DNA of 64,000 bases, taken from the NCBI GenBank assembly GCA_029838195.1, contig JALGVJ010000015.1:1-64000 (forward strand), read 5' to 3'. The notes under the pieces were generated by a model. The model saw only the letters and a list, made by a program, of their open reading frames with translations, ran no database searches and had not been told where the DNA came from. Source of the DNA: Promethearchaeota archaeon (lineage in GTDB: Archaea; Asgardarchaeota; Lokiarchaeia; Sigyniarchaeales; SOKP01). The position numbers were made by a program, and so were the translations under genes. Shown here in pieces: positions 25,089 through 46,553 of this stretch; position 1 is the stretch's first letter, and every line of letters begins with the position of its first letter.

Positions 25089-25862
25089 TCATTTATTTAA
25101 ACAATCTTTAACTCTCTCTATGATTTGAGGCAAGACATTGCCGATTTTATCATGAATTACTACTTCTGCTTGATGATCCATTTCGGTCGGTTGAATATTA
25201 ATTATAGCTAATTTTGCTCCAGCAGCAATCGCTTTATGAGGATAAAAAGCCACGGGATACACTAAAAGAGAACTTCCAAGAACAATCATTAAATCTAAAT
25301 CAGCAATCATCTCATCCGCTTTTCTTAAAACAGCAGACTCTAAAGGTTCACCGAAAAATATAGCATTGGGTTTCAATAATCCTCCACATTCCTCACAAGT
25401 CGGGGAATTTTTACCCCTTAATACTTGGTTGATCAAGGTAGTAATGGGATAAACTCTCTTGCATCGCAAACATTTACTTTCATTCGCCGTCCCATGTAAT
25501 TCGACCACGTTTTTTGTCCTCGCTTTAGAATGCAATCCATCGATGTTTTGAGTAAGAACCCCCTTCAATTTTCCCATTTTTTGGAGTTGAGTTAAAGCTT
25601 TATGTCCCTTGTTCGGTTTTGCCCGAAAGATCGTAGTGCCCATTTCTAACATCAATTTTAAATTCTTAGAGGTGGAAGATACATACGAATGTATGCTTGC
25701 GAATTCGTCGGGATCTACTTTTGTCCATAATCCTGTTCCAGGTGAGCGAAAATCCGGAATTCCTGATTCCGTACTCATTCCAGCACCTGTTAAAGCTACA
25801 ATATTTTTTGATACCAAGATTAAATCTGCGAATTTAGCAATTAATTGTTCTCTTTCTGTCAT
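25089..25862 (-). CDS. NAD-dependent protein deacylase (sirtuin)
   Basis: TGAGMSTESGIPDFR, TQNIDGLH, ELHG, CxxC...CxxC, GSSLLVYP. Confidence 0.95.
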   Translation of the reverse strand: MTEREQLIAKFADLILVSKNIVALTGAGMSTESGIPDFRSPGTGLWTKVDPDEFASIHSYVSSTSKNLKLMLEMGTTIFRAKPNKGHKALTQLQKMGKLKGVLTQNIDGLHSKARTKNVVELHGTANESKCLRCKRVYPITTLINQVLRGKNSPTCEECGGLLKPNAIFFGEPLESAVLRKADEMIADLDLMIVLGSSLLVYPVAFYPHKAIAAGAKLAIINIQPTEMDHQAEVVIHDKIGNVLPQIIERVKDCLNK

Positions 25863-26107: not shown

Positions 26108-27631
26108 CTACCAATAATAAGGTTTTTTAGGATAATAAAGAGGTGTATTTAGGAGCCACTCAAAAAGAGCTTCTTTTAATTCATTTTCGATTGCAGAAAC
26201 TTCTTTTTGTCCGATTAGGTTATCATATTCTAAAGAGTCTTGTTCTGAATTAGTCAATACGAATCCATTTCCTCGTTTGGGAAGGGAGAGAATTTGATAA
26301 TTATCTTTGGTATTTTCTTGTAATTTTTCTTTCGGAACGAACCAGTTATTCAAGGGGTAATAGATAAGTTTCCAAGGCCCTTTACTCACACCAACTGCTT
26401 TCTTTTGGTATTCATAATAGGAGTAAACCCGAGATTTTTTTAATGGTTTATTTTTCAAGAATGGTGCAAAAGAAATCCCTTGAACGTGGTCTGGTATGGG
26501 AAATCCTAAGTAATCAAGAATGGTAGGAAGAATATCTTCATGCTGAGTTGCTCCGTGATATTCTGTTCCCGCTTTCATTTTTTTGGGGAGTCTTATCAAG
26601 AAAGGGATTTTAAGAATATTATCATACATGAAACATAACTTTCGGACGAGTCCATGATCTCCACAATAATCTCCATGGTCGCTTGTAAAGATAATTATAG
26701 TATTTTCAAGTTGATCTGTCTCTTCTAGAACGTTCAATATCCGACCAATGTGATGGTCGATATGGGAGATCATTCCATAATATGCAGCCTTCATGCGTTG
26801 AAATTCCGAATCAGGCATATCTTTTACGTGAAAATAACAAGGGGGAAGGAAGGCATTTTCACCCTTTTTTCGAATTGGTCTTGGGAGTTCTTTTGGATCG
26901 TACATAGAAGCAAAAGGCTCGGGAGGATTAAAGGGATGATGAGGGTCGACATAGGAGCACCAAGCAAAGAATGGTTTATTTTGAGCCGTCTTTTCTCGAA
27001 TGAATTTAATTGTTTGGTCAGTAATCCATGCAGTTTGATGAAGGTGTTCAGGGAGTTCCGAAGTAAAGACTGCTTTCAAAGTTCCAACATCTGCAAAGAG
27101 AGGATCGTAATAATTGTCTATGTAGGGATTACTTGTTTGTTCGTTGCCATTTTTCAAGGCAGCTTCATAATATTGTGGAAATTCTTCCTTAATGTATTCA
27201 AGATATTCCCCTACCAAATTATCTTCAGTAATGGCAAATTCATTAAACCCATAATATTTTTTATCATGATTCATATTTTCAGCATAATTGCTTAGCTCCG
27301 CTTCGAAATGCGCTTTTCCAAAGATTCCAGAAATATAGTTTTGTTTTGATAAAAGGTTTGGAATTCCAATGATTTTTTTATCTAAGTTATAACCAACATG
27401 CCAAGCGCCGTGAGTTCTAGAATATAGTCCGGTTAGGATGGAAGCACGTGCTGGGGTACATATAGGAGATGAACAGGTGTGATTTTTAAAATTAATGCCC
27501 TCTCTTGCGATTCTATCTAAATTGGGAGTGCGGATGTAATCATTACCATTACATCCGATAGCATCAAATCTTTGTTCATCCGTAGTAATTAATAAAATGT
27601 TCAATTTTTGTTGTTTTTTGTTATTATTCAT
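26108..27631 (-). CDS. Formylglycine-dependent sulfatase
   Basis: NILLITTDEQR, CTPARASILTG (CxPxR), GKAH, DPHHP, SDHG. Confidence 0.92.
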   Translation of the reverse strand: MNNNKKQQKLNILLITTDEQRFDAIGCNGNDYIRTPNLDRIAREGINFKNHTCSSPICTPARASILTGLYSRTHGAWHVGYNLDKKIIGIPNLLSKQNYISGIFGKAHFEAELSNYAENMNHDKKYYGFNEFAITEDNLVGEYLEYIKEEFPQYYEAALKNGNEQTSNPYIDNYYDPLFADVGTLKAVFTSELPEHLHQTAWITDQTIKFIREKTAQNKPFFAWCSYVDPHHPFNPPEPFASMYDPKELPRPIRKKGENAFLPPCYFHVKDMPDSEFQRMKAAYYGMISHIDHHIGRILNVLEETDQLENTIIIFTSDHGDYCGDHGLVRKLCFMYDNILKIPFLIRLPKKMKAGTEYHGATQHEDILPTILDYLGFPIPDHVQGISFAPFLKNKPLKKSRVYSYYEYQKKAVGVSKGPWKLIYYPLNNWFVPKEKLQENTKDNYQILSLPKRGNGFVLTNSEQDSLEYDNLIGQKEVSAIENELKEALFEWLLNTPLYYPKKPYYW

Positions 27632-28257: not shown

Positions 28258-28815
28258 ATGTCTGAATCGAAAGTACAAAAAAGTTTTATTTATAAAATCT
28301 GCGTTCTGGGCGACGGTGGAGTCGGAAAGACGTCAATGGTACTCAGATATTGCGAAAATAAATTTAAAGAAAACTATATCATGACCATTGGAAGCAATTT
28401 TGCAAGTAAAAAAGTAGTTCTCGAAGATTATCCTGAATTCAATGTAAACTTGCAGCTTTGGGATCTGGCCGGCCAACAGCATTTTTCGTTTGTCCGCCCG
28501 CCATTTTATCGTGGCGCCTCTGGATTAATATACGTGTTTGATCTAACTAGGAGGAGTTCTTTTACAAATCTTGCGAAATGGAAAGAAGAAGCCATGAAAG
28601 TATTAGGATCTCAGAAGCCAAACATATTAATTGGAAATAAATTAGATTTAGTGAGAGACGGAAATAGAGAAATCGGAGAAAAGGAGGGGGAAGCATTAGC
28701 TAAGGAATTTAATGCATTAGCTTATTATGAGACCAGCGCAAAAGAGAATATTAATGTCGAACTTGTATTTAAAAATTTGACTTTAGGAATTCTAAAAGCC
28801 TCAAATAAAATATAA
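28258..28815 (+). CDS. Rab-like small GTPase (Asgard eukaryotic signature protein)
   Basis: GDGGVGKT, TIG, WDLAGQ, NKLD, ETSAK; RabF-like IGSNF/NLQLW/FYRGA/YVFDLT; no C-terminal Cys. Confidence 0.93.
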   Translation: MSESKVQKSFIYKICVLGDGGVGKTSMVLRYCENKFKENYIMTIGSNFASKKVVLEDYPEFNVNLQLWDLAGQQHFSFVRPPFYRGASGLIYVFDLTRRSSFTNLAKWKEEAMKVLGSQKPNILIGNKLDLVRDGNREIGEKEGEALAKEFNALAYYETSAKENINVELVFKNLTLGILKASNKI

Positions 28816-29171: not shown

Positions 29172-29891
29172 ATGATGTTTAGTGGTGGACAGCGCGCTTA
29201 CGATAGGGCTCTTACAGTGTTTTCTCCAGAAGGTCGATTATACCAAGTTGAATATGCTTTAGAAGCCGTGCGAAGAGGTACTTTAGCTGTAGCTGTAAAA
29301 TCGGATAAAGATGTGTGCTTGGTAGCTCAAATTAAAATTGCATCAAAACTCATGGATCCTGATTCTATTGATAAAGTTTTCCAAATTGATGAGCATATTG
29401 GCTGTGCAATTTCAGGATTACACGCAGATTCACGGATCTTGATTAATTATGCTCGGGTTCAGGCCCAATCGTTCAGATTAACCTATGGTGAACCCGTTCG
29501 ATTAAACATGTTGGTAAAATCTATAGCAGATCTTTGCCAGATGTATTCTCAATATGGTGGAATCCGTCCGTTTGGTTGTGCCCTTTTTTTCATTGGAATC
29601 GATGAAGGTGGCACTCAAATATACACTACCTCTCCAAGTGGAATATATCGTTCATTCAAAGCATATGCATTGGGTAACGGAGAGGCGAATGCGAGAGAAT
29701 ACATTAAAAATAATTATAAAGAAAATATGGCATTTGAAGAATTAATTAAATTGGCGTTAAATGCCATAAAAGAATCGATTGAAGAGCAAATTTCTAAAGA
29801 CACCATTCGATTAGCTTATATCCGTTCAGAAGATAAAAAATTTAAGGCGTGTACTAAGGAAGAGATTGAAAAATACATCCAAAGTTTATAA
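29172..29891 (+). CDS. psmA: 20S proteasome alpha subunit
   Basis: YDRALTVFSPEGRLYQVEYA, SGLHADSR, GIRPFG. Confidence 0.95.
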   Translation: MMFSGGQRAYDRALTVFSPEGRLYQVEYALEAVRRGTLAVAVKSDKDVCLVAQIKIASKLMDPDSIDKVFQIDEHIGCAISGLHADSRILINYARVQAQSFRLTYGEPVRLNMLVKSIADLCQMYSQYGGIRPFGCALFFIGIDEGGTQIYTTSPSGIYRSFKAYALGNGEANAREYIKNNYKENMAFEELIKLALNAIKESIEEQISKDTIRLAYIRSEDKKFKACTKEEIEKYIQSL

Positions 29892-30192: not shown

Positions 30193-30594
30193 ATGGGAAA
30201 GAAGAAAAAAGTAAGAAAGGAGTTTGAATCCGCATTTAAATCGGGGGATCAAACTACTATGAAACGGTTATTGGACGAAAATCCTTGGTTATTAGAAGAG
30301 GTTTCAGGAGAATTAAAAGGAGAAATTCAAGAACAAGATCAAGTATTAGCAGCGTTGGGAATAATGGAAGATGAATTGGGACACCCTGTTCCGATTCAAG
30401 AAATCATATTTTGCTTAAAAGAAGATTTTGGTATTCGCAAATCAGATGAGGAGGTTTTAAACCATCTATTAGAGGCGGAGAAGTTAAAGTTGGCAAGAAA
30501 AGAGCCCAATGGTTGGAATTTAACGGAAAGTGGGGGAGAAGTGTGTGATAATTATTTAAATAAAAGATTCTTTAAATTGAAGGCAGGAAAATAA
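30193..30594 (+). CDS. Hypothetical protein with C-terminal winged-helix-like domain
   Basis: Helix-helix-wing pattern ending GWNLTESG; GAGGT SD. Confidence 0.7.
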   Translation: MGKKKKVRKEFESAFKSGDQTTMKRLLDENPWLLEEVSGELKGEIQEQDQVLAALGIMEDELGHPVPIQEIIFCLKEDFGIRKSDEEVLNHLLEAEKLKLARKEPNGWNLTESGGEVCDNYLNKRFFKLKAGK

Positions 30595-30766: not shown

Positions 30767-33700
30767 ATGACCGAAGATAAAAAAGATAAGATTTTCACGG
30801 AAGCTTATAGTTTATTAGAACATGCTTTAGATTTGTTAGATTCTAAATTTTATGATGATGCGTTAGAAGTTTTGAAACAATCCAAAGAGCTTTTTAAAGA
30901 ACTAAATCGAGAAGAAGAAATGAAAATAATTGAGGAGAAGATTTCAGAGATCTCGAAAATAAAAGAACGTCAGAGGACTGATCTTGTAACGAAAAAGAGA
31001 GAAGATTCAGAATTGGAAACTCAAATAAGAGCATTAGTGGATGATGCAGAGCGTCTTGCTCGCGAATATGAAAAAGAATGGCATGATGCCCTAAAAGAGG
31101 ATAGAATCCTTAGGGAAAGTAAATATCCATTGGTCATTCAAAAATACAAAAATATTATAAAGCTGTTAAAAGATAAAGGTTGGGAAAAACAAATTCCTGT
31201 TTATGAAGAAACGATTGAGAGATACAAATTAAAATTGAAAAACGAGGAAAAAGTTAGAGATTTGGAAAAAGAAAAAAGAGAAAAACAGGAAAAACAACTG
31301 GGTCTTCGGAGATTGCCTTTAAGGGACGTATTAAAAATAGTAGATGGTGAATCTAAAGATGAGATTTTAAATGAATTAAGAAAGAAGGGAGAGGAAAAAA
31401 ATCTTGATATCTTAATTGAAAGTATTGAACGTGAATTGAAATTCAGGGAAAAAGAATATTTGAAAGAACTTAAAGAAGGAAATTTTAATATTGAATGTCC
31501 ATATGAAAAAATAATAATCGTATATCAAGCTATTCAACAACTATTAGAAGAAAAAAATCATCCAGAAGAAGCCTCATTATATACTAATATTATCAAAAGT
31601 TATGAACAAAAACTTGCTCAAGATGAAAATCTAAGGGCAACAGAAGCTTTAAAATTGAAAAAAAAAGAAGAGTTTGAAACGCTCCAAAAATCAAAAGATG
31701 TTTCTCCAGCAATGCAACAGCCTGAGAAAATAAAAAGAACAATGGAAAAAGAAACACTAGAAAAAGATGAAAGTCAAGATATTGATGCTTATATCGATAC
31801 CCTTATAAAAAAATCTAATGAATTAGAAGAAATTTACATGAAGACTATTAAACAAGGGAATTTTGAGATTGAGTGTCCCTATGAAGAGATTATTAAGAAT
31901 TATAAAGAAATTCAAGATCTTTTAAGAAAAAATAATCGAATGAGAGAAGCTTCGCTTTATGAAAATGCCATTCAATTATACCAACAAAAATTGGAACAAG
32001 ATAAAAGATTAAGAGAAACTGAGGCTCAAAAAAAACAAAAAAGAGAAGAATTGAAAGCTTTACAAAAAATAGAAAATGGAGCTAAGGAGAGTGAGATAGA
32101 TAAACGCATGATTTTAAAAACGACTAAGAAAGAAGAAAATGAGCAGTTTCAACAGGCGATGCGGTTAATAGAAGAAGTTGAAAAAGAGATAAAAGAATAT
32201 GAAACTCAACGTAAGGAAAACATTCTTGAACATGAAACCCCCTACGAACGAGCCATTGAAGCTTATAAAACTGCTCAAAATATTTTAAGAAAAATTGGAT
32301 GGACGGATGAAGCTAATCGATTAAATGATTCTATTATTTATTATAAAGAAAAAAAGGAAAAAGACGATATTTTAAGAGCCAGGGAATTAGAAAAAAGAAA
32401 AAGAAGGGAAATTGTACTGGAAAGAGAAAAAGAAACAAGAAAAACGTTAAAAATTGAATCTGAAAAAGAAGTAATGGAAAAAGAAAGGCGGATTAAACAA
32501 CAGCAAGAACAAAAAGCTGCCGAGTTAAAGCGAGCTAATGAACTTTTTGAAACTATAGAAAAAGCAAACCAAATAGCAAGAGAATATCAAGTTCAAATAA
32601 AACAAAAAAATTTTACAGAGCCATCAAAATATATTGAGGTGATTGATATCTATGAAAAAGCAAAAGAAACGTTTGAAAATATGGGTTGGGAAGGAGAGGC
32701 TAACAAATTAAATGCTTCTATTTATTATTACAAGAAAAAATTAGAGGAAGAAAATATTCTGAAAAAGCAGTTTCAACAAGAAAAAAAAGAAAAAGAGTTA
32801 GTGGAGAAAGGTTATCAGTTAATGGATCAAGCTTTAAAAAAATTGAGTGTTCAAGAATTCGATGAGGCACGAAATTTATACAATAAAGCTAAAGGAATCT
32901 TTTTGAGTTTGGGAAGAAGTCTTGAATTAGATAAGATTAAAATGGCCATGATTGAATTAAATAGAAAGAGGGAGGAATATCTTAAAAAATTAAGAGAACA
33001 GGAGGAAAAACGAGAAAAATTAAGAGAAGAAGAAAAAATCCTGGAAGAAAAAGCCATTATTGAGCGCAAGAATTTTCAAAGAGAGTTAGAAAAAAAGCAA
33101 GAGCTATTCATACAACTTAAAGAAAAAGAACAAAAAGATAAAGCAATTTCCGAGGAAGCCTTATCACTTATTCATCAAGCAGAAGAAATGGCAAGAATAT
33201 ATGAAGAGAATATAAAGTTAGGGAGACGTCCCGAACCCGTATATGAAAAGGTAATAGAATTTTATGAAAAAGCCATTGAAAAATTTCGAATGATTGGATG
33301 GGAAGATGAGATTTTAAAATTAAAAGAATCCATCCAATATTATCGAAAGAAGAGTAAAGAGGATAAAGAATTAAGGGAGTTAGAGCGAGTAAAATCAAGA
33401 GAAATAGAAATAGAACAAGAGGCTTATAATTATTTGGAAGAAGCTACAACCATGATGAATTCTAATAATTTCGATGCTGCTCTAGAATTATATAAAAAAG
33501 CAAGAGATTTGTTTGAGGAAATTAATCATGATTTAGAAGTTAAAAAAGTAAATAATTCCATTTTAGAACTCAAACGTAAAAAAGAAGATTATTATAAAAA
33601 ATTAGAAGAAATAAAGAAGAAAAGAGAAAAACTCATAAAAGAGCAACAAGAATTAGAACAAAAGATACTTCTTGAAAGAAAAAAATTAAAAAAAGAATTA

Positions 33701-36700
33701 GAAGAAAAGCAACAACAATACCTTCAAATTAAAGAAAGAGAAGAAAAGGAGAAAAAGATTTCGGAGGAGGCATTGTCTCTTATTAATAAAGCAGAAGAGA
33801 TTGCAAAATGTTATGAAGAGGAATTAAAAAAAGGAAAACTTCCTCCGGAATGTGGTTATGAAGAAGCTATTAAATTATATCAAAACGCGCTTGCTAAATT
33901 AAAATCACTTGATTGGAAAGAAGAAATCAAACGATTAGAAGAATCGATTGAATATTATGAGGAAAGATTAAAAAGAGATAAGGAAATACGTGAAATAGAG
34001 GCAATTAAAAGAAAAGAAGCAGAAATTCAGAAAAAAGCATATCTTTATTTGGATCAAGCGGCAAACATGATGAATATTAAGAATTTTGACGATGCATTGA
34101 AATTTTATGGACAAGCTAAAGATTTATTTGAACAAATAGGAAGTTCTTTTGAAATCGAAAAAGTGAATCAATCCATCATGGAATTAAAAGAAATTAAGGA
34201 AGCTCATGAAAAAGAATTACTTGAACAAAAATTAAAAATTCAAGAGAAAGAAAAAGAATTAAAGAAACTAGAAGAAGAAGCTAGGCTTCAAAAGTTAAAA
34301 ATCCAAAAAGAATTAGAAAGAAAACAACAAGAAGTCATGAAGGCTTTGGAAGAAGATAGAACACGTCAAGCTATTTATGAACAAACCTTAACCATGATCC
34401 AAGAAGCTGAAGATAAAGCACGAGAATATGAAGAAAAGATACAAAATGGAGAACTAGTGGATTGTGTCTATGGAGAAGTGATTGAATTATATAAAGAAGC
34501 GATTAAAAATTTTGAAAAAATTGGTCTCAGGGAAGAAATAGAAAGGCTAAAAGAAGCTATCGAATTTTATGAGGAAAAAGAAGAACAAGATACAAGATTA
34601 AGGGAATTCGCTAAAATTTCGGAAAGAGAAAAAGATCTAACGATAAAAGCTTATCAATTAATGGATATGGCTGCTAGTTCATTAAAAATGAAAGAGTTTG
34701 ATAAAGCTATTAAATATTATGAAGAAGCAAGAAAAATTTTTGATGAACTTAGCCATGAAGATGAGATATTGAAGATCTCCATTTCGATTGATGAAGTAAA
34801 TAAGGAACGAGAAAAATATCTTGAAGAATTGGAGAAAATAAAAAAATCCAAAGAACAAGAAGAGGAACAGTGGCGCTTGTTAGAAGAGGAAGCTAAAGCC
34901 TTAAAAGCCCAAATTCAAGAAGAATTGAAAAAGAAAAATGAACAACTATTTGAAATTCAAAAACAAGAGAGAGAAAAAAAGGAAATTTCAAACCGTGCTC
35001 TCTCATTGATAACAGAAGCAGAAACTATGGTTGAAACTTATGAGAAACTCATGAAAAAAGGAGAACGACCAGAGTGCGTGTATCCGCAAGTGATTGAGAA
35101 TTATCAAAAAGCCATGGAGCTTTTTACATCCATTGATTGGGTGGATGAAGCGGAGAAATTAAAGGATCCCATTGCTCACTATGAAGAAAAACTAAGAAAA
35201 GATCAAAAAATAAGGGAAATGGAACTCAACTTGAAAAAAAAGGCAGAAATAGCTGAGAAAGCTTATAAATTAATGGATCATGCCATAACCGCTGTTAACA
35301 TGAAAGAGTTTGATGAAGCATTGGAATTGTATCAAGAAGCTAAAAACCTTTTTACTTCAATTAATAGAAATTTAGAAGTTGCTAAAATAGATATTTCAAT
35401 TGAAGAGGTGAAGAAAGAAAAAGAACAATACTTGCTCAAGTTAGAAAATCTTAAAAGGAAAAAGAAAGAAGAACAAGAACTTTTAGCCCAACTGGAAGCG
35501 AAGGCGAGAGGCCAGAGACTCCAATTTCAAAAGGAAATGGCAAAAAAGAATCAACAGCTAAAGCAATTATCTAAAATTGAAAAAGAGAAGAAAGTAATCT
35601 CCGAAAACGCATTATCCATGATAATTGAGGCAGAAGAAAAAGCAGAAAATTATGAAAAAGCCCTAAAAGAAGGTAAAAAACTTGCTTGTGTTTATCCGGA
35701 AGTAATTAAACTGCTTGAAAATTCAAAAAAACTGTTGGAAAGCATTGAATGGACGGAAGAAGTTTCGAGAATTCAAGAATCCATTCAATATTATAAGAAC
35801 AAATTAGAGCAAGATAAAAAATTAAGAGAACTAGAAGAGGCAAAAAAGTTAGAAAAAGAATTAACAAATAAAGGCTATGAATTAATGGAAAAAGCCATTA
35901 TCCAAGTAAACATGAAGAATTTCGATGAAGCCATTGAATTATATAAAGAAGCATTAGCGCTTTTTGAAAAAATAAATCGCGAAATAGAAATCGAAAAGAT
36001 CACCATATCATTAATGGAACTTGAACAAAAAAAGAAAGAAGAAGCACTAAGACTAGAGAAGGAACGAAAAAAAAAGGAGGCACAATTATTAGAATTTCAA
36101 GAAATGGAAGCACGTGCAAAAGCAGAAAGGAAAAGATTACAAGAACAGTTAAAAAAGAAACAAGAACAATTTCTTGCAGTTAAAAAGAGAGAAAAAGAAG
36201 AAAAAGAGAAAGCTGAAAATGCACTTTTCATAATTAATCAAGCAGAATCATTGGTAGAATCCTATGAAAAAGCTTTAAGTAATGGACAACGGCCAGAATC
36301 AATTTATCCTAAAGTCATAGAATTATATGAAAGCGCACTTCAATTATTAGAAGAGATTGAATGGAAAGAAGAAATTGATAAGATTAAGGAAGCAATTGAC
36401 TATTATAAGGAAAAATTAGATGAGGATTTAAAATTTAGAGAATTAGAGGCGAAAAAGTTAGAGGAAGAAAAAATAGCTTCTGAAGCATACCTTTTAATGG
36501 AGAAAGCAATTTCCTTGGTTAATATTCAAGAATATAGTAAGGCGTTAGATTTATATGAAGAAGCAAGAAAAAAATTCCAAATCATTAATAGACCTATAGA
36601 AATAGAGAAAATAGACGCATCAATAGAAGAATTACATAGAATTGAAGAAGAAAAAATTGAAAAATTAAAAAGAAAGCGAATGGAAGAGATTAAAAGAAGA

Positions 36701-39034
36701 AGGGAAAAGGAAGAATTTGAAAAGGAACTCTTGGCAGCAAGGAAGAAGTTAAAAAAAGAAATGGAAGAGAAAAAGAAAAAACAATTAGAAAAGCAAGAAC
36801 GAATCAAGAGAGAAAAGCAAATCTCAGAAGAAGCTTTTTCATTAGTTAATAAAGCAGAAAATATGGTAGAAGAATATCATTTAAAATTAAGTAAGGGCGA
36901 AAGTCCTGAAATTGATTATAATAAAGTCATCGAATTATATGAACAAGCTATAAAAAAATTAAAAAGCATAAATTGGCAAGATGAAGTAAATAAGCTTTTG
37001 GATGCTATTGAATATTATAAACAGAAAAAGAAAGATGAAGAAATTCTAAAAAAATTAGAATTAGAAGAGAACAGAAAGGAAAAAGAACTTGAGAAAGCAT
37101 ATACATTAATGGAAAAAGGCATGGAATTGTTTAAACAATCAAAATATGAAGAAGTTATTCGACTTTATGAGCAAGTTGCTCAAATCTACAAGCAATTAGA
37201 AATGGAATATGAATTGATGACTATTGAGAATTTAATCTTAGAAATTAATGAGAAAAAGGCTGCTGAAGAAAGAGCTCTAAAAGAGGAGGAAAAATATCGG
37301 GAGGAGATTGAGAGAGAATTATTAGAGCGACAAAGAGAATTAACTAGAGAATATAGCGAGGAGCAGAAGCGAAAACAAAGAGAAAAGGAGCTGTTAAAAG
37401 CTGAAAAATTGAAAAAACAAAAAGAAAAAGCAAAAGCTAAGGAAGCTCATGAGTATATAGACAAGGCAGAGGAATTAGCTAAAAATTACAAATTAGATAT
37501 AAATGTAGCATTTGAAAAAGTAGAACAATTATTCAACAAAATCTTCGATTATTATCAAAAAGCTAAAAATATTTTTGAAGAAATTAATTGGAGAGAGGAA
37601 GTTAAAACATTAGAAGAGACGATTGAATATTATCAAGAAAAGCTGAGAGCAGACAAGGAATTTCGAGAGATTGAAACACAAAGAAAAAAGCAAGAACAAG
37701 AAGAATTAGAACGCTTGGAACAATTGGCTCGCATGGCTAAAGAGCGAGAAGAGTTGATGAAAAAAAGGAAAGAAAAATTGTTATTAAAAGCTAAAAAAAT
37801 AGCAAAAGCCCATGAGGAAAAGAAAAAGAAAGCTTTTGAGTACTTGGATGCAGCAAATGAAGAATTAAATAATAATAATCACGATAAAGCACGTGAATTA
37901 TACCAATTGGCTGGCGAAATATTTGCTAGCATTGATTGGCAAGAAGGCGTTTCAATGATTAACGAATCCCTTGAAATGGTTGAACAACGTAAAAGAGAAG
38001 TCGAAAAGCAACTTAAAGAAGAAGAACAAAGAAAACATGAACAAGAATTATTTCATAGAGAAATAGAAGAAAAAATAGCTGAACTTGAAAGGATTAAGCA
38101 ACAAGAATTAGAACAGAAGCGAAAAGAACTTCTAGAGAAGCAAAAACAGCAAAAAGAACAAAGAGAAATTGCGGATAAAGCTTTTAAGTTGTTAGAAGAG
38201 GGCACGCGATTTTTGGAAGTCAATAAATTTGACGACGCAGAAGCGAGATATATACAAGCACGAGACCTTTTTGGCAAAATTGGATGGACCCATGAAATTT
38301 CTAAAATAAATAATGAATCCTTATTGAATTTAAGAAGAAAGAAAGCCTTAATCGCACGTTCAAGAGAAGAACAAAGAAAAGCTAAAGAATTGAGAGAACG
38401 GAGAGAAAAAGAAATAGAAAAACAAAAGCAAATTCAAGAAAAAGCCCTTAAAAAATTACGAAAGATAAAAATCATGGATAAATTTGACGAATCCATCCAA
38501 CAAGAGTATGAAAAAGCTCAAGAATACCTCAACTCTCATGAATATAACCAAGCCGTCCTTATCCTTAAAGATGTCGTGGATAAATTAGAGAAAGCAGGAA
38601 AACAAGATGAGAAAGAAAAAATTAAATCCCAAATAATGCAAATCATGGAACAATCAAGAATCCCCATCATTACATTAGAAGAAACAATTTCTCCAAAAGA
38701 ATTAGACTATTTCATTGCAACTTGGCGAGCCCTCGATAAAGCAAACATTTCTCTTGCCAATAATTTGCCCATGAAAACGATTTCTGAATTAAAAGAAGCC
38801 ATCTTTAACATGCAACAAACTCAGCTGTCTAAAAAGTATCTTGAAAAAATTAATTCCCTAATGAACGAATTAAATATTGAATTGGGAAGAAAAAGAAAAG
38901 TACCACTCAGTGATGCGGGTGATAAATCCGAAACGGAGATTCAAAAAGATGAATTAGAACAAAAGATCCAAGAACGAAGAAAACAACGTGAACAACGCAT
39001 TTTAGACTTATTAAAAAAAAAGAAAATTGAATAA
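30767..39034 (+). CDS. Giant (2755 aa) all-alpha E/K-rich repeat protein with TPR/MIT-like modules and charged helical linkers
   Basis: Uninterrupted 8.27-kb ORF; about 13 type-A and 13 type-B helical modules; no TM segment or signal peptide. Confidence 0.9.
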   Translation: MTEDKKDKIFTEAYSLLEHALDLLDSKFYDDALEVLKQSKELFKELNREEEMKIIEEKISEISKIKERQRTDLVTKKREDSELETQIRALVDDAERLAREYEKEWHDALKEDRILRESKYPLVIQKYKNIIKLLKDKGWEKQIPVYEETIERYKLKLKNEEKVRDLEKEKREKQEKQLGLRRLPLRDVLKIVDGESKDEILNELRKKGEEKNLDILIESIERELKFREKEYLKELKEGNFNIECPYEKIIIVYQAIQQLLEEKNHPEEASLYTNIIKSYEQKLAQDENLRATEALKLKKKEEFETLQKSKDVSPAMQQPEKIKRTMEKETLEKDESQDIDAYIDTLIKKSNELEEIYMKTIKQGNFEIECPYEEIIKNYKEIQDLLRKNNRMREASLYENAIQLYQQKLEQDKRLRETEAQKKQKREELKALQKIENGAKESEIDKRMILKTTKKEENEQFQQAMRLIEEVEKEIKEYETQRKENILEHETPYERAIEAYKTAQNILRKIGWTDEANRLNDSIIYYKEKKEKDDILRARELEKRKRREIVLEREKETRKTLKIESEKEVMEKERRIKQQQEQKAAELKRANELFETIEKANQIAREYQVQIKQKNFTEPSKYIEVIDIYEKAKETFENMGWEGEANKLNASIYYYKKKLEEENILKKQFQQEKKEKELVEKGYQLMDQALKKLSVQEFDEARNLYNKAKGIFLSLGRSLELDKIKMAMIELNRKREEYLKKLREQEEKREKLREEEKILEEKAIIERKNFQRELEKKQELFIQLKEKEQKDKAISEEALSLIHQAEEMARIYEENIKLGRRPEPVYEKVIEFYEKAIEKFRMIGWEDEILKLKESIQYYRKKSKEDKELRELERVKSREIEIEQEAYNYLEEATTMMNSNNFDAALELYKKARDLFEEINHDLEVKKVNNSILELKRKKEDYYKKLEEIKKKREKLIKEQQELEQKILLERKKLKKELEEKQQQYLQIKEREEKEKKISEEALSLINKAEEIAKCYEEELKKGKLPPECGYEEAIKLYQNALAKLKSLDWKEEIKRLEESIEYYEERLKRDKEIREIEAIKRKEAEIQKKAYLYLDQAANMMNIKNFDDALKFYGQAKDLFEQIGSSFEIEKVNQSIMELKEIKEAHEKELLEQKLKIQEKEKELKKLEEEARLQKLKIQKELERKQQEVMKALEEDRTRQAIYEQTLTMIQEAEDKAREYEEKIQNGELVDCVYGEVIELYKEAIKNFEKIGLREEIERLKEAIEFYEEKEEQDTRLREFAKISEREKDLTIKAYQLMDMAASSLKMKEFDKAIKYYEEARKIFDELSHEDEILKISISIDEVNKEREKYLEELEKIKKSKEQEEEQWRLLEEEAKALKAQIQEELKKKNEQLFEIQKQEREKKEISNRALSLITEAETMVETYEKLMKKGERPECVYPQVIENYQKAMELFTSIDWVDEAEKLKDPIAHYEEKLRKDQKIREMELNLKKKAEIAEKAYKLMDHAITAVNMKEFDEALELYQEAKNLFTSINRNLEVAKIDISIEEVKKEKEQYLLKLENLKRKKKEEQELLAQLEAKARGQRLQFQKEMAKKNQQLKQLSKIEKEKKVISENALSMIIEAEEKAENYEKALKEGKKLACVYPEVIKLLENSKKLLESIEWTEEVSRIQESIQYYKNKLEQDKKLRELEEAKKLEKELTNKGYELMEKAIIQVNMKNFDEAIELYKEALALFEKINREIEIEKITISLMELEQKKKEEALRLEKERKKKEAQLLEFQEMEARAKAERKRLQEQLKKKQEQFLAVKKREKEEKEKAENALFIINQAESLVESYEKALSNGQRPESIYPKVIELYESALQLLEEIEWKEEIDKIKEAIDYYKEKLDEDLKFRELEAKKLEEEKIASEAYLLMEKAISLVNIQEYSKALDLYEEARKKFQIINRPIEIEKIDASIEELHRIEEEKIEKLKRKRMEEIKRRREKEEFEKELLAARKKLKKEMEEKKKKQLEKQERIKREKQISEEAFSLVNKAENMVEEYHLKLSKGESPEIDYNKVIELYEQAIKKLKSINWQDEVNKLLDAIEYYKQKKKDEEILKKLELEENRKEKELEKAYTLMEKGMELFKQSKYEEVIRLYEQVAQIYKQLEMEYELMTIENLILEINEKKAAEERALKEEEKYREEIERELLERQRELTREYSEEQKRKQREKELLKAEKLKKQKEKAKAKEAHEYIDKAEELAKNYKLDINVAFEKVEQLFNKIFDYYQKAKNIFEEINWREEVKTLEETIEYYQEKLRADKEFREIETQRKKQEQEELERLEQLARMAKEREELMKKRKEKLLLKAKKIAKAHEEKKKKAFEYLDAANEELNNNNHDKARELYQLAGEIFASIDWQEGVSMINESLEMVEQRKREVEKQLKEEEQRKHEQELFHREIEEKIAELERIKQQELEQKRKELLEKQKQQKEQREIADKAFKLLEEGTRFLEVNKFDDAEARYIQARDLFGKIGWTHEISKINNESLLNLRRKKALIARSREEQRKAKELRERREKEIEKQKQIQEKALKKLRKIKIMDKFDESIQQEYEKAQEYLNSHEYNQAVLILKDVVDKLEKAGKQDEKEKIKSQIMQIMEQSRIPIITLEETISPKELDYFIATWRALDKANISLANNLPMKTISELKEAIFNMQQTQLSKKYLEKINSLMNELNIELGRKRKVPLSDAGDKSETEIQKDELEQKIQERRKQREQRILDLLKKKKIE
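32530..37430 (+). repeat. About 8 diverged tandem 204-aa (612-bp) repeats within the giant ORF
   Basis: Equivalent codons at 33146, 33758, 34373, 34985, 35597, 36209, 36821 (spacing 612/615/612/612/612/612). Confidence 0.9.
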
Positions 39035-39061: not shown

Positions 39062-39292
39062 TTAAACTGCTATTTTTTCAGAAATTGGCAACTTTAATTC
39101 TTCATTTTCCCTTTCCACTTCTGTTGCTCCATTATTTCCATTGATTACCTCATCAATTTTGAATTCTGTCTTGATCAAGTCTCGAATCGCCATTCGAATT
39201 GCCTCGCTTCGATTTGGAAATCTCCCTTCAGCAACTAATATTTCTAATAAATTTAAATAATTTTCTGGAATGTTTAATGAAATTAATCTCAT
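39062..39292 (-). CDS. cdrS: Ribbon-helix-helix regulator, CdrS-like
   Basis: MRLISLNIP...GRFPNRSEAIRMAIRDL resembles the archaeal CdrS pattern GxFPNRSEAIR; GGGAGGT SD. Confidence 0.7.
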   Translation of the reverse strand: MRLISLNIPENYLNLLEILVAEGRFPNRSEAIRMAIRDLIKTEFKIDEVINGNNGATEVERENEELKLPISEKIAV

Positions 39293-39561: not shown

Positions 39562-39822
39562 TTGTCTAAAACACAAAAAATTAAACAAAAAATAATTATT
39601 AACAACTCTAAATGCACATCATGTAAAATTTGCATGATGTGGTGTAGCTATCAATTTTTCAAAAGATTTATTCCCTCTAAAGCCCGAATCAGAATAGAAA
39701 ATGAATATGATTTACAACCCAACATCGTGTTTTTGGAATCATGTACGCAGTGCGGTCAATGTGCTCTACATTGCGTTTATGGAGCATTAATTCTTAAGGA
39801 GGAGAGAGAAGAAAATGAGTGA
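39562..39822 (+). CDS. 4Fe-4S ferredoxin-like subunit upstream of AOR
   Basis: CTSCKICMMWC and CTQCGQCALHC. Confidence 0.85.
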   Translation: MSKTQKIKQKIIINNSKCTSCKICMMWCSYQFFKRFIPSKARIRIENEYDLQPNIVFLESCTQCGQCALHCVYGALILKEEREENE

Positions 39823-41722
39823 GTGGAGTGGATACACGGGAACTATTTTAGAAATTGATTTAACTTCGAGAAAGACCTTCTCAATTAAGGAAAATAAAGA
39901 GGATTTGCGTCAATTCTTGGGAGGGTTTGGCATGAATTGTAAACTTTTCGCTGATCGTTTCGTGCCTAAAGTTGACCCCTTATCGCCCGAAAATTTTGTA
40001 ATTATAGGGACGGGGCCTTTAGTTGGAACGATAACACCAGGAGCTTCGAGAACCGTTGTTATCTCAAAATTTCCCGCAACCGGGGCTATAGCTAATTCCT
40101 GTGGAAGTATGAGTTTCGGCTTTCAAATGAAGCAAGCGGGTTATGATCATGTGATTATTCATGGCCGAGCTGAAAAACCTTCCTATTTATTAATTATTGA
40201 CGATGCCGTGGAAATTAGAGATGCATCCAAAATCTGGGGTAAAGATATCGTGAATTCCACTAACTTTTTGAAAAAAAAGCATGGTTCGAGCGGAGTTATT
40301 TCAATTGGACAAGCGGGTGAAAATTTAGTAAAAGGAGCGTTAACACTCATTGATAATACTTCCACGCTTGGAAGGGGTGGATTAGGCGCAATTTTGGGGT
40401 CAAAAAACGTAAAAGCAATAGTTGTAAAAGGAAAAAGAGGTATAGATATAGCCCATCCTACAGTATTTAATGAATTGTATGAGAAGTTCATGGAAAGAGT
40501 ACGGAATTACCCTCAGAGAGAATCGTGGTTGAGCCTTGGAATGTTAAGAAGTTTGCCAATTGGGATGTTATTATCATTAAAAGGACAAAAAACAAAGGTA
40601 AAACAAGTTAGTGAACGGACGTATTTAAAAAAAATAAAAGCAAGGCGCATTGCATGTCCTTCTTGTCCCATGGCCGACAAGGACATTCTATTAATAAAAG
40701 AGGGAGAATTTCAAGGTTTAATTAACTATACTTCTTCGGTTATCAATCCCTTTCTCATGTTCACGTTAGAAGGGTTAAAATCGCATGATGAAGCAATAAA
40801 AGCTTTTGATCTAATTAATAGATATGGATTAGATTCATTAACCATTACTGCGCTACTCGAATTTTTAACTCAAATGCAAGAAAAGGGGATTTTAACGGAG
40901 GACATCACGGGAATAAAGTTTTCTACGGATTATAAGAGTTTAGAGAGACTCATCAAAATGATTGCGTTCCGTAAAGGATTTGGAAACATACTCGCGGAAG
41001 GTTGGGAGGGGTTAGCTGAATTAAATGAAAAAATAAGGGAGGAGATGCTTGTCATAAAGGGTTTAGATGTGGTATTCGAACCGCGACTTTTACGCCTGGG
41101 CACGATGGAATTTGAGCAAGTAGTAAATCCTAAGGGAGCTCATATCGCATCCGGTGGCTCTCCTACTTATGTAGGGGCTGCGAGTTCTATTGATAAGTTT
41201 GAAACGCATTTTCATAGAATGGGGATACCAAACGATGCCATAAAACGAATTTTTAATCCTCCTAAAAAAGATTTATTAATTGATATTGGTAGATTAACCC
41301 GTTATTCAGAAGATTGGTATGCCCTTTTAACTTCACTCGGTTTGTGCGCTCGGGCTCAAATGAATCGATTTTACAACTTCCGGCTAATCCGTGAGATCTA
41401 TAATTCTGTTACTGGTTTTAATTTAAGTGAGGACGAATTTCGTAGAACTGCAGAACGATCATGGAATTTGCTTAAAATCTTAAACATGAAAGAAGGATTT
41501 TCGAGAAAGAATGATAAATTCCCCTCGAATTGGTTTAAACCATTGAGATATGGAAAACTCACTCTCGAAATCAAGGATTTTACGGGAGAAACGAGGATTA
41601 CGGAGGAATTAGCCATTGAATTGCTTGATAATTATTATGATGAGCGGGGGTGGGATAAAGAAAATGGGCTTCCTACAACTTCAAAGCTAAAGCAATTGAA
41701 TTTAGAGAGGTATTTGACATGA
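39815..41722 (+). CDS. aor: Tungsten-dependent aldehyde:ferredoxin oxidoreductase family protein
   Basis: GYTGTILEIDLT, SIGQAGENLV, GRGGLGAILGSKNVKAI, CPSCP, YYDERGWD. Confidence 0.92.
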   Translation: MSEWSGYTGTILEIDLTSRKTFSIKENKEDLRQFLGGFGMNCKLFADRFVPKVDPLSPENFVIIGTGPLVGTITPGASRTVVISKFPATGAIANSCGSMSFGFQMKQAGYDHVIIHGRAEKPSYLLIIDDAVEIRDASKIWGKDIVNSTNFLKKKHGSSGVISIGQAGENLVKGALTLIDNTSTLGRGGLGAILGSKNVKAIVVKGKRGIDIAHPTVFNELYEKFMERVRNYPQRESWLSLGMLRSLPIGMLLSLKGQKTKVKQVSERTYLKKIKARRIACPSCPMADKDILLIKEGEFQGLINYTSSVINPFLMFTLEGLKSHDEAIKAFDLINRYGLDSLTITALLEFLTQMQEKGILTEDITGIKFSTDYKSLERLIKMIAFRKGFGNILAEGWEGLAELNEKIREEMLVIKGLDVVFEPRLLRLGTMEFEQVVNPKGAHIASGGSPTYVGAASSIDKFETHFHRMGIPNDAIKRIFNPPKKDLLIDIGRLTRYSEDWYALLTSLGLCARAQMNRFYNFRLIREIYNSVTGFNLSEDEFRRTAERSWNLLKILNMKEGFSRKNDKFPSNWFKPLRYGKLTLEIKDFTGETRITEELAIELLDNYYDERGWDKENGLPTTSKLKQLNLERYLT

Positions 41723-41813
41723 AGTCATGTATCATGTAAACCAAAAATTTTTACGAAACCATCCATTATTTTACTTACAAGTTTATATAGATTAATCAGG
41801 AGGAAAAAATATA

Positions 41814-42140
41814 ATGACAGATATTCAAAAGCAATTAAAAGAACACCTAGAAAATGGCAAAGATTGGGAGCAAATGGAAACGCCTATTCCGGGCGTGTTT
41901 ATCGTGAAAGGTCCTGGAAGTAAAAGACGGCCTCCCATGTTATATTTAGAGATTAATCCGTTAAAAGAAGATGGGACTCCCATGAAACGAAAAGGACTCT
42001 TTATTAATAATTATGAAATGTTAGTAAAATTTTCTGAAGCATTGAACGACGATACTACGTTAAAATTAATTAAAGAAATTGAAAAGGTAAATCCTAAATT
42101 AAATACTAAGAAATCTTCAGTAAAAAAATTACAGATGTAA
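41814..42140 (+). CDS. Hypothetical protein
   Basis: 108-aa ORF with AGGAGG SD; beta-rich core PIPGVFIVK...LYLEINP. Confidence 0.75.
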   Translation: MTDIQKQLKEHLENGKDWEQMETPIPGVFIVKGPGSKRRPPMLYLEINPLKEDGTPMKRKGLFINNYEMLVKFSEALNDDTTLKLIKEIEKVNPKLNTKKSSVKKLQM

Positions 42141-42244
42141 AATCGAGCCTTTTTTTCAGAGAAATTCAATCAAACTAATAAGTTATTAAAATATCATTAG
42201 GAAAACAAAAATACGCATTCCTTGAGAGAGAAGAAGAATTAAAG

Positions 42245-43138
42245 TTAAAGTTCTTTCATAGCCTGATCTGCTTCCTTTTCTAAGTCTGCTGAATCCACCC
42301 ATTCTTGAATTTTTTTAAACTCATCTTCTTGTATATCGTAGCTATATTCTTGCGTGGGATATTTTTCCCCTTTTACTTCTTGTTTATACCCATTGATTGC
42401 TTCTTTAATTGCGGCGCCGATATTTCCAAAATATTTTAAAAATTTGGGTTTAAATTCCGTGAAAATGCCTAACATGTCATGAAGAACGAGAATTTGACCA
42501 TCACAATAAGGGCCTGCACCAATGCCGATGGTAGGAATATCAAGTAAATCCGTGATGATTCTTGCCAATTGCCAAGGAATGCTTTCTAATACAATAGAGA
42601 ATACGCCAGCTTTTTGGAGATTCAATACATCCGTGATGATCTGTTTGGCGGCATTAATCGTCTTGCCTTGTACCATGAATCCTCCAAATTCATAAATGGC
42701 TTGAGGAGTTAGCCCTACGTGTCCCATTACTTGAATGTCTGCCCGTATCAATTTTTTAATAAGAGGACATACTTCGGAGCCCCCTTCTACTTTTACGGCT
42801 TCAGCACCTCCTTCTTGAATGAATCTTCCGGCATTATAGATAGCATCTTTCATATCTACTTTATAAGAAAGAAAGGGCATATCTCCTACAATGAGGGCAT
42901 TGGATACACCACGTGAAACTGCTTTAGTATGATGGATCATCTCATCAACAGTCACCGCAAGCGTGTTTTCATTGCCAAGCATTACCATTGACAATGAATC
43001 TCCTACTAAAATAAAATCAATGCCGCATTCATCCACCAATTTTGCCATCGAATAATCATAAGCCGTGAGAGCAACAATTTTTTCTTTTAATTTTTTTTTT
43101 TCCATTAATTTTTTAATAGTCATTTTACGTAGCGACAT
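42245..43138 (-). CDS. panB: 3-methyl-2-oxobutanoate hydroxymethyltransferase
   Basis: LTAYDY, LVGDSL, GDMPFLSY, VKVEGG, GHVGLTPQ, GIGAG. Confidence 0.97.
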   Translation of the reverse strand: MSLRKMTIKKLMEKKKLKEKIVALTAYDYSMAKLVDECGIDFILVGDSLSMVMLGNENTLAVTVDEMIHHTKAVSRGVSNALIVGDMPFLSYKVDMKDAIYNAGRFIQEGGAEAVKVEGGSEVCPLIKKLIRADIQVMGHVGLTPQAIYEFGGFMVQGKTINAAKQIITDVLNLQKAGVFSIVLESIPWQLARIITDLLDIPTIGIGAGPYCDGQILVLHDMLGIFTEFKPKFLKYFGNIGAAIKEAINGYKQEVKGEKYPTQEYSYDIQEDEFKKIQEWVDSADLEKEADQAMKEL

Positions 43139-44457: not shown

Positions 44458-45441
44458 ATGAATAAACATCTGGAAACGCCTTGGGTGGAAAAATATAGAC
44501 CCAAGACATTTGATGAGATAGTTTCCCAGAATATAGCTATTAGCAATATTAAAAAATTCATAAAAAGTAAAGACATGCCCCACATGATTTTTGCGGGACC
44601 TGCAGGGACGGGAAAGACGACGACGGCCCTAATCATGGCAAGAGAAATGATTGGAAAAGAAGATCTTTATAGCTCTTTATTAGAATTAAATGCTTCGGAT
44701 ACGGTTCGGATGGAGTATGTCCGCTCTGTAATTAAAAATTTCATCAATCAAAACATTAGTACGACGAGAAATGGGATTAAATTTATATTATTGGATGAAG
44801 CAGATAACATTCCGGGTCAAGTTCAACAAGCCCTCCGAAGAATGATGGAGCAAACTGCGAATAATGTAAAATTTATTTTAATGTGTAATTATATCAATAG
44901 AATCATCGATCCCATCATTTCAAGATGTGCAGTTTTCCGATTTGTTAATTTACCAAAAGAGCAGGTCATTAAACGATTAAAATTTATCTCAGAAAACGAG
45001 AATTTAAAGATCCCGGAAGAGAAAAAAGACCTTTTTTATAAAACTCTTTATTTTATTTCAGCGGGAGATCTACGAAAAGCTATTAATGCGCTTCAAATGT
45101 CGGTTGCTTTAGATTTAATTCAGGACCTGAACATCAATGAAATCTTAAATATTTCAGGGTTCATGACAGAAAACATGGTTCGACAGTTAAGTTCAGCTTT
45201 CCAAGAAAAAAATTTAACAAGAGTTCAAGAGATTTTACTTTCATTAACGAATTTAGATAGTCGTAATATTTTGCGCCAAGTGGCAGAGATTCTTGTAAAA
45301 TTAAAAGGAATTGGGAGCACGAATTTAGCTCGCTTGAGAGCGTTCCTTGGGGATATTGATTATCGAATTGGCCAAGGAAGTGATGAAAGGCTCCAGCTCA
45401 TGGCATTATTTGCCGAGATCTTGCTTAGCATGAAAAATTAA
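44458..45441 (+). CDS. rfcS: Replication factor C small subunit
   Basis: PWVEKYRP, GPAGTGKTT, ELNASD, LDEAD, SRC, GDLRKAIN. Confidence 0.95.
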   Translation: MNKHLETPWVEKYRPKTFDEIVSQNIAISNIKKFIKSKDMPHMIFAGPAGTGKTTTALIMAREMIGKEDLYSSLLELNASDTVRMEYVRSVIKNFINQNISTTRNGIKFILLDEADNIPGQVQQALRRMMEQTANNVKFILMCNYINRIIDPIISRCAVFRFVNLPKEQVIKRLKFISENENLKIPEEKKDLFYKTLYFISAGDLRKAINALQMSVALDLIQDLNINEILNISGFMTENMVRQLSSAFQEKNLTRVQEILLSLTNLDSRNILRQVAEILVKLKGIGSTNLARLRAFLGDIDYRIGQGSDERLQLMALFAEILLSMKN

Positions 45442-45486
45442 TGAATTAAAAACAAAACGGTTTACTTATTCAAGAGAGAATTAATA

Positions 45487-46533: not shown

Positions 46534-46553
46534 GAAATAAGTGAGGTGATACG

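Follow-up and report, generated by a model that had tools for sequence, protein, structure and literature searches.

A giant Lokiarchaeales protein predicted to form a long rod of MIT/TPR-like three-helix bundles joined by continuous charged helices

The giant gene and its modules

The window, that is, the whole stretch of 64,000 nucleotides analysed here (Promethearchaeota archaeon, GenBank assembly GCA_029838195.1, contig JALGVJ010000015.1, positions 1 to 64,000 of the forward strand; G+C 29-41%), carries a gene for a giant protein, P0001, built of many related modules of two kinds, A and B. The reading frame of this gene is unbroken across 8.3 kb, with a stop-to-stop frame that exceeds the open reading frame (ORF) by 7 codons, and E, K, R and Q together account for 48% of the residues of the protein, which has a net charge of -40. 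The feature is real, conserved and structurally interpretable. The gene and its parts are given below, in nucleotide coordinates of the window and amino acid (aa) positions of the protein; HMM stands for hidden Markov model.

30767..39034, + strand: giant gene, P0001; 2755 aa, cytoplasmic, about 24 three-helix modules (ORF call, module HMMs)
30800..30967, + strand: N-terminal B module, aa 12-67 (B HMM E 1.4e-14, six-frame B-profile match)
30998..32524, + strand: N-terminal array of four A-only modules, aa 78-586; anchor spacing 126, 126, 121 and 129 aa
32525..37420, + strand: eight A+B units of 204/205 aa each (autocorrelation, alignment, HMMs, AlphaFold model of aa 1403-1690)
32525, 33134, 33746, 34361, 34973, 35585, 36197 and 36809, + strand: starts of the A+B units, at aa 587, 790, 994, 1199, 1403, 1607, 1811 and 2015
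37427..37654, + strand: ninth A module with no B beside it, aa 2221-2296 (HMM)
37829..38347, + strand: two C-terminal B modules, aa 2355-2409 and 2471-2527, with a spacing of 116 aa as in all orthologues
38489..38911, + strand: conserved C-terminal domain, aa 2575-2715, with a B-like bundle, an IP(L/I)ITLE motif and a further three-helix unit
38930..39031, + strand: conserved polybasic C-terminal helix, aa 2722-2755, preceded by a disordered stretch

The repeat period

Autocorrelation of the giant protein with BLOSUM62 showed one dominant peak at a lag of 204 residues (score 0.70, 23.6% identity) and harmonics at 408, 613, 817, 1021 and 1225, the lags next to 204 being negative. Seven units cut every 204 residues could be aligned over 204 columns with one indel site of 1 residue. 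The modules were mapped with A and B HMMs built from the two conserved blocks of the units, which placed eight A+B pairs with starts at aa 587/681, 794/885, 998/1090, 1203/1294, 1407/1498, 1611/1702, 1815/1906 and 2019/2110. Outside these units, further A modules were found at about aa 89, 213, 339, 460 and 2221, further B modules at aa 12, 2355 and 2471, and a B-like module at aa 2582. In each unit, the 73-aa module A is followed by a short linker of helical structure, then by the 56-aa module B and by a second linker of some 60 residues; the spacing of 204 is the sum of 76 aa from A to B and 128 aa from B to A. When the unit spacing is taken at a conserved Trp, replaced by Leu in one module, the successive values are 204, 205, 204, 204, 204, 204, 204 and 205 aa. 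The 204-aa units are only 27-48% identical to one another (mean 36%), and therefore a repeat collapse in the assembly cannot account for the period.

An earlier, sequence-only reading of this DNA had claimed a strictly conserved 204-residue period over eight A+B units, with 612 bp in five of six measured intervals. The sharp autocorrelation peak and the HMM placement agree with the period and the number of units, the 612-bp interval is found in six of eight cases, and the consensus strings which that reading wrote down for A and B match the computed ones. It also described the protein as free of a membrane anchor, which holds as well: no transmembrane segment was detected in the giant protein, the top Kyte-Doolittle window of 19 residues having a mean of 0.83. 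Its placement of extra A-only modules at the N-terminal side and B-only modules at the C-terminal side was correct, but it overlooked the N-terminal B module at aa 12.

Predicted fold of the repeats and their spacers

AlphaFold2 was run on aa 1403-1690, covering A, B and the next A, with an alignment of 15 rows of paralogous and orthologous units, and gave a model with a mean predicted local distance difference test (pLDDT) of 93.7 and a predicted TM-score of 0.53. The helices predicted in this 288-residue model span residues 2-28, 37-53, 57-109, 113-129, 133-232, 241-257 and 261-287. Each module is predicted as an up-down-up three-helix bundle, in which helix 3 runs on through the spacer and becomes helix 1 of the next bundle, so that the predicted connectors are single helices of 53 and 100 residues. 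A similar connection of 82 residues (49-130) is predicted in a model of the C-terminal 296 residues, made with 36 orthologues and having a pLDDT of 89.7. In the eight units, about 1000 residues of predicted long helix contain just 2 Pro and 5 Gly.

The spacers are composed of 63-77% E/K/R/D/Q and 16-24% strong hydrophobics, with partly conserved positions. Their periodicity at 3.5-3.6 residues has a power of 0.46, compared to a mean of 0.34 and a 99th percentile of 0.63 for the shuffle null, and the best heptad register collects 50% of the hydrophobic mass, where chance would give 29%; the hydrophobic stripe is broken by a fully charged 10-residue gap. Thus, no significant heptad or Fourier periodicity was found in the spacers relative to shuffles. 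From helix lengths at 1.5 Å per residue, not from coordinates, the rod could be estimated at about 18 nm per A+B unit (some 12 nm for a unit of 125 aa) and, if straight, at up to about 0.25 micrometre for the whole chain.

Taken together, the giant protein very probably has the architecture of a very long rod in which MIT/TPR-like three-helix bundles are connected with spectrin-like helix continuity by length-locked charged spacers. The extended beads-on-a-rod shape proposed earlier is consistent with the continuous predicted helices, and no solenoid is seen in the models. For the linkers, which had been proposed to be ER/K single alpha-helices or coiled coils, the outcome is divided: the predictions show them as long helices that run on from those of the bundles, but they are neither clean ER/K single helices nor clean heptad coiled coils.

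The C-terminal domain and polybasic tail

According to the orthologue comparison, conservation within the family is highest in the C-terminal ~230 residues and not in the repeats. The C-terminal model runs, in order, through a connector, a B-like bundle, a loop with the invariant IP(L/I)ITLE motif, a three-helix unit, a disordered stretch and the terminal helix. The family consensus of the polybasic helix is RIAARREERRKKVLDLLKK, and giant proteins of other lineages also end in R/K-rich tails. The tail could plausibly bind a membrane, nucleic acid or the acidic tails of other proteins. An ESCRT-III-type MIM1 motif was also considered for this helix and rejected, because the consensus LxxRIAARREERRKKVLDLLKK has Arg where MIM1 needs Leu and because the other lineages have just generic polybasic tails.

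What the modules resemble

Modules A and B are homologous to each other (hhalign probability 98.7%, E 3e-16), and A differs from B by an insertion of 13 residues that makes helix 1 and its loop longer. When compared with PDB sequences, a B profile of 110 sequences matched the VPS4A MIT domain over its full length with an E value of 1.7e-4, and the MIT domains of VPS4A, VPS4B and SKD1 were matched over the whole module with E values from 1.7e-4 to 1e-2. The same profile also matches the consensus TPR over a 22-residue stretch at positions 9-30. The A profile gave weaker matches, with E values of 0.24 for the VPS4A MIT domain and about 0.1 for alpha-SNAP. Among Pfam families, TPR_12 matches the giant protein with 32.5 bits at a cut-off of 30.1, while spectrin (PF00435) gave no match in it at E <= 1, and no enzyme-associated TPR family was matched.

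Structural comparison with VIA-align returned MIT domains with Z of 9-10 and root-mean-square deviations (rmsd) of 1.8-2.5 Å, although the tool itself warns that Z below about 13 is common and unspecific for helical bundles. The list includes katanin p60 (5lb7) and the archaeal CdvC MIT domain (2w2u), both with Z 10.0 and rmsd 1.8 Å, MITD1 (Z 9.8), SKD1 (Z 9.7) and yeast Vps4 (Z 9.5), as well as NRBF2, spartin, spastin, ULK3 and Vta1. The tandem MIT domains of calpain-7 span A plus B (Z 9.7, 138 residues), and a plakin spectrin-repeat fragment of plectin (2odv) was matched with Z 9.3 over 124 residues. Foldseek found nothing in the PDB at E <= 1e-3 for either model; its best rows were weak matches to alpha-SNAP (1e-2), the calpain-7 tandem MIT domains (4e-2) and the TPR domain of KLC2 (8e-2). 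A shape search of the ESM-Atlas returned generic TPR proteins alone, with TM below 0.35. We therefore describe the modules as MIT/TPR-like, which had been surmised from the sequence and is now supported by the AlphaFold models, the VPS4A match and the structural comparison. However, they are not filed here as members of the MIT family because they fall below the Pfam threshold and bear weak likeness to the MIT domain of Vps4 from the same genome; the A profile matches that domain with a probability of 0.8%. For reference, Pfam MIT scores 43.6 bits in this Vps4 and 50.9 bits in another protein of the genome.

Two smaller proteins encoded in the same genome, at C72:31369-32457 (+) and C66:16915-17397 (+) within open frames of 503 and 518 aa, each contain several MIT/B-like modules that score below threshold and are thus smaller paralogues of the module family. 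In related genomes there are also proteins with two A modules and a length of about 225 aa, such as those at G008:C16 and G019:C129.

Family, orthologues and conservation of spacing

A word-indexed search with the giant protein returned 74 proteins of 1515-2927 aa, for which every named source is an Asgard metagenome-assembled genome (MAG), and an exhaustive search of 1.84 billion representatives with the A-module profile yielded just 285 proteins with E <= 1e-3. Across 301 sampled GTDB species of the phylum, A modules are present in 67 of the 68 genomes of the taxonomic family to which the window belongs and in five of seven genomes of the sister family; essentially none occur outside these two families, with weak single matches in 4 of 76 genomes of one other family. 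Among the genomes searched, the giant protein is specific to Lokiarchaeales. An orthologue exists in the cultured Promethearchaeum syntrophicum (DSAG12_01611, QEE15784/WP_369019542), where it has 2547 aa and a period of 130 and is annotated as a hypothetical protein. A literature search, including one by the locus tag DSAG12_01611, found no publication describing this family. The giant Asgard proteins reported previously are different genes, which are linked to aloposons (PMC8813620).

The gene order is kept around giant proteins that are just 25-28% identical to P0001, indicating that they are positional orthologues. About 40 orthologues share a spacing frame of 134, 126, 130, (123/124) x n, 121/122, 122, 116 and 116 aa. 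A period of 204 is confined to P0001 and its 55%-identical orthologue P0002. The units of these two proteins are one-to-one orthologous, with 48-60% identity on the diagonal and a mean of 36% off it, and it could be deduced that the eight-unit array is older than the split of the two proteins and that its lengths were kept while the sequence diverged. Both have the same 204/205 pattern; one indel site is common to most units, and a 2-residue gap is found in unit 8 only.

Hence, length is strongly constrained position by position, with no single period for the whole family. The periodic ruler suggested by the sequence-only reading is weakened as a universal ruler, and in part refuted in the terms which that reading set, because orthologues do not share the period (116-134 versus 204); however, lengths are conserved at each position and so do not vary freely. 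For the family as a whole, a ruler matched to the lattice of one partner is unlikely, and a scaffold in which each continuous-helix spacer keeps its length and phase would fit better. A rule by which the spacings differ by whole helical turns (116 + 3.6n) was rejected, since 116, 123, 126, 130 and 134 fit it while the frequent values 121, 122, 128 and 129 do not, the counts across orthologues being phylogenetically non-independent.

In the metagenomic relatives P0077, P0081, P0082 and P0084, very similar units recur with a 127/254-aa period and an autocorrelation of 1.5-2.3. The near-alike units indicate a recent whole-unit amplification and show that the repeat number in the family changes by exact duplication of units. 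A second, paralogous family of giant proteins (P0041-P0074, 2100-2930 aa) from other Asgard MAGs has B/TPR/MIT-like modules only, with a 116-aa period and a super-period of 461-463 aa corresponding to four modules, and occurs alongside the A-type giant in at least three MAGs (shared prefixes ACFE9S, ACFFCY and ACFE9T). A six-frame search with the B profile did not detect a full-length giant of this second type in the genome to which the window belongs.

Genomic neighbourhood

The giant gene is flanked by the following genes.

28258-28815, + strand: Ras-family small GTPase, conserved upstream synteny
29172-29891, + strand: proteasome alpha subunit, conserved upstream synteny
30193..30594, + strand: P0075, 133-aa protein of no known family, upstream of the giant gene
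39062..39292, - strand: CdrS/aCcr1-like ribbon-helix-helix (RHH) regulator of 76 aa, tail-to-tail with the giant gene at a gap of 27 bp

The conserved order consists of a Ras-type GTPase, the proteasome alpha subunit, an ORF of about 130 aa, the giant gene, the convergent RHH gene, proteins of about 105 and 90 aa, a GNAT acetyltransferase and RFC subunits. P. syntrophicum keeps the core of this block, namely a small ORF, the giant gene, the RHH gene and a 107-aa gene, and its proteasome gene is not adjacent. P0075 has no Pfam or NCBIfam family, and an Atlas feature search returned Promethearchaeota hypothetical proteins only, plus a weak DUF4364 lead at 0.86; read off the sequence, its N-terminus is basic and its C-terminal half possibly winged-helix-like. 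At four orthologous loci, the giant gene is preceded directly or nearly directly by an ORF of about 130 aa without a Pfam match, and in P. syntrophicum by one of 86 aa.

The best NCBIfam matches of the RHH gene are CdrS (E 8.5e-12) and aCcr1 (E 7.8e-5), both under the equivalog cut-offs, and of the four CdrS-like genes which the genome has, it ranks first; none of the four lies on a contig that bears an FtsZ gene. An RHH_1 gene keeps the tail-to-tail position at four of the five other loci inspected. CdrS and aCcr1 govern cell division in Halobacteria and Sulfolobales (PMC7439475, PMC8406309, PMC9976878), and guilt-by-association with such a neighbour hints weakly at a function of the giant protein in division or the cell cycle. 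Because of their convergent orientation, the RHH gene and the giant gene do not form an operon.

Three further genes lie past the RHH gene, either before the conserved 108-aa gene or immediately beyond it: an aldehyde:ferredoxin oxidoreductase (39815-41722), a ketopantoate hydroxymethyltransferase (42245-43138, -) and a small Cys-rich, ferredoxin-like ORF within 39562-43138 that was read off the sequence. None of the three genes occurs at this place in the orthologous loci inspected, which points to an insertion into the conserved block that is specific to this lineage. Genes of DNA metabolism abound nearby: they encode a family-B DNA polymerase (17045-19459, -) and a Rad51/RadA-like protein (21473-22264, -), and three RFC/AAA+ clamp-loader-like genes lie at 44458-47918. 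A Sir2 deacetylase (25089-25862, -) and a sulfatase (26108-27631, -) are also present.

Comparison with known systems

The modules are similar to the MIT domains of Vps4/CdvC, katanin p60, spastin and MITD1 and to the tandem MIT domains of calpain-7 and Vta1 in being predicted three-helix, 1.5-TPR-like units of about 60-75 residues. Unlike MIT proteins, which bear one or two such domains at the end of an enzyme or adaptor, the giant protein has about 24 along a rod and no enzymatic domain. Its modules also differ from MIT domains in scoring below the Pfam gathering threshold and in their weak likeness to the MIT domain of the Vps4 of their own genome. With TPR proteins such as alpha-SNAP, LGN/Pins and kinesin light chain, the modules share helix-turn-helix pairs with the TPR signature FDEAI..Y..A, but in the models there is no contiguous superhelix, each module being a capped 1.5-repeat unit isolated by a helix of 20 to 60 residues.

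Spectrin rods are made of three-helix repeats in which the last helix of one repeat is the first helix of the next. The giant protein is predicted to resemble spectrin-repeat rods (spectrin, alpha-actinin, plakins and bacterial EzrA) in this continuity and in a strict repeat length. However, there is no sequence relationship, the bundles are shorter and of the TPR/MIT type, they are parted by exposed charged helices of 20 or 60 residues instead of abutting, and the period is 116-134 or 204 aa, compared to about 106 aa in spectrin. The spacers, in turn, resemble the ER/K single alpha-helix (SAH) spacers of myosin VI/X and caldesmon, since they are long, rich in E/K/R, nearly free of Pro and Gly and predicted as isolated helices of fixed length. 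They differ from SAH domains, whose strong hydrophobic content is classically lower, in their 16-24% of strong hydrophobics at partly conserved positions.

Proposed mechanism and alternatives

On the basis of the structural and comparative data, we tentatively favour a multivalent peptide-binding scaffold, in the form of a long extended cytoplasmic rod anchored by its basic tail, although we are not quite prepared to call it probable. In such a protein, about 24 bundles of two homologous kinds, A (73 aa) and the MIT-like B (56 aa), would be joined to their neighbours by one unbroken alpha-helix made of helix 3, the charged spacer and helix 1. As the connection would be a continuous helix, the length of a spacer would set both the distance and the rotational setting between bundles, which would explain the near absence of indels. 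The bundles may bind peptides or helices, as MIT and TPR units do, and the multivalent rod could then hold many copies of a short motif on a polymeric or surface-bound partner at a defined spacing. One end of the rod would be attached by the polybasic C-terminal helix to an acidic surface such as a membrane, nucleic acid or acidic protein tails. The likeliest partners would be polymers of division or membrane remodelling, such as ESCRT-III tails; all the same, binding of the giant protein to ESCRT-III or to another division or cytoskeletal polymer is, on our estimate, improbable. In a bolder form, the giant protein would be an Asgard-specific tether or ruler, a quarter of a micrometre long, whose ~24 MIT-like bundles would grip a polymer (ESCRT-III, FtsZ or Lokiactin) by its C-terminal tails at fixed intervals while the polybasic end sits on membrane or DNA, and this we consider doubtful to a similar degree.

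Several observations weigh against the peptide-binding scaffold or against parts of it. With regard to the identity of the modules, designed three-helix proteins and TPR fragments reach equal Z in the VIA-align lists. Pfam MIT (PF04212) scores 21.7 bits for the whole protein over 8 stretches and 21.8-25.9 bits for single B modules in the six-frame search, against a gathering cut-off of 30, and the B profile matches the MIT domain of the genome's own Vps4 with a probability of 30% over 28 columns. With regard to the partner, the giant gene lies outside the ESCRT cluster, and Vps4 and one ESCRT-III gene are found on contig C87. The genome has two ESCRT-III genes with Leu-rich C-terminal helices (180 aa on contig C87 and 216 aa on contig C22), and the gene context gives no support for an ESCRT link. 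The central period varies by lineage (116, 120, 123-124, 126-130, 134 or 204 aa), so that no one fixed lattice of a partner can be matched by the rod throughout the family. Finally, the spacers are more hydrophobic than a classic SAH, and for this reason the rod may be oligomeric rather than a monomer; a straight helix in a monomer prediction is also compatible with helix pairing.

An alternative proposal is a homo-oligomeric former of coiled-coil filaments or networks, of the intermediate-filament or crescentin type, in which spacers of different chains would pair in a parallel or antiparallel manner. It is in line with the hydrophobic content of the spacers, their weak 3.5-3.6-residue periodicity and the share of hydrophobic mass in the best heptad register, and equal periods would keep the bundles in register, as an antiparallel arrangement would need. 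We nevertheless regard such a filament as unlikely, because the periodicity lies within the shuffle null and the fully charged gap cuts the hydrophobic stripe. Somewhat better placed, while still rather unlikely, is a spectrin-like strut or elastic element with a structural role alone, for instance in cell shape or protrusions, whose bundles would stiffen the helix and bind no ligand. The predicted continuity from helix 3 to helix 1, the match to the plectin fragment 2odv, the strictly conserved module length and the near-universal presence in an order known for protrusions all speak for a strut; cells of the order reportedly have a protrusion-bearing morphology. The lack of a Pfam spectrin match, the TPR/MIT-like nature of bundles whose class normally binds peptides, and a separately conserved C-terminal domain and basic tail that suggest specific interactions speak against it.

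The TPR-like features could also be read as those of a co-chaperone or proteasome adaptor that binds C-terminal peptides, given that TPR_12 exceeds its cut-off, that the B profile matches the consensus TPR and that a proteasome alpha gene is conserved two genes upstream. This is very unlikely, since the modules are isolated 1.5-repeat bundles without a TPR superhelix and its peptide groove, the neighbourhood is a long syntenic housekeeping block (RFC, GNAT, Sir2) with no evidence of a functional operon, and the proteasome gene is not adjacent in P. syntrophicum. It is hardly credible that the giant gene is an artefact of assembly, or a fast-evolving expansion of low-complexity repeats that has no function, as might be thought from its high E/K content and from the recent amplification of units in the relatives P0077, P0082 and P0084. 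The frame is intact over 8.3 kb, and the units are diverged (36% identity) yet conserved in length and one-to-one orthologous between species. Moreover, A modules occur in 67 of the 68 genomes of the taxonomic family, with conserved ends and synteny.

Concluding remarks

Few cultured organisms are as closely related to eukaryotes as the Lokiarchaeales, whose cell architecture, including protrusions, actin and ESCRT, is a subject of intense study. The giant family comprises some of the largest Lokiarchaeales proteins and occurs in almost all genomes of the order that were searched, yet its annotation goes no further than hypothetical. Its module type is the one that eukaryotes use to read ESCRT-III tails, and with an orthologue in a cultured strain it is a defined candidate, open to experiment, for a novel element of the cytoskeleton or of a scaffold. 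If the tether or ruler were true, the CdrS-like neighbour would link the giant protein to cell division, and the protein would be a prokaryotic functional analogue of spectrin or nebulin made from ESCRT-type MIT modules. The family is also a natural example of continuous-helix spacers constraining repeat length. Even if the giant protein is merely a passive spacer, a new architecture is documented, in which MIT-like bundles are arranged in spectrin-like connectivity.

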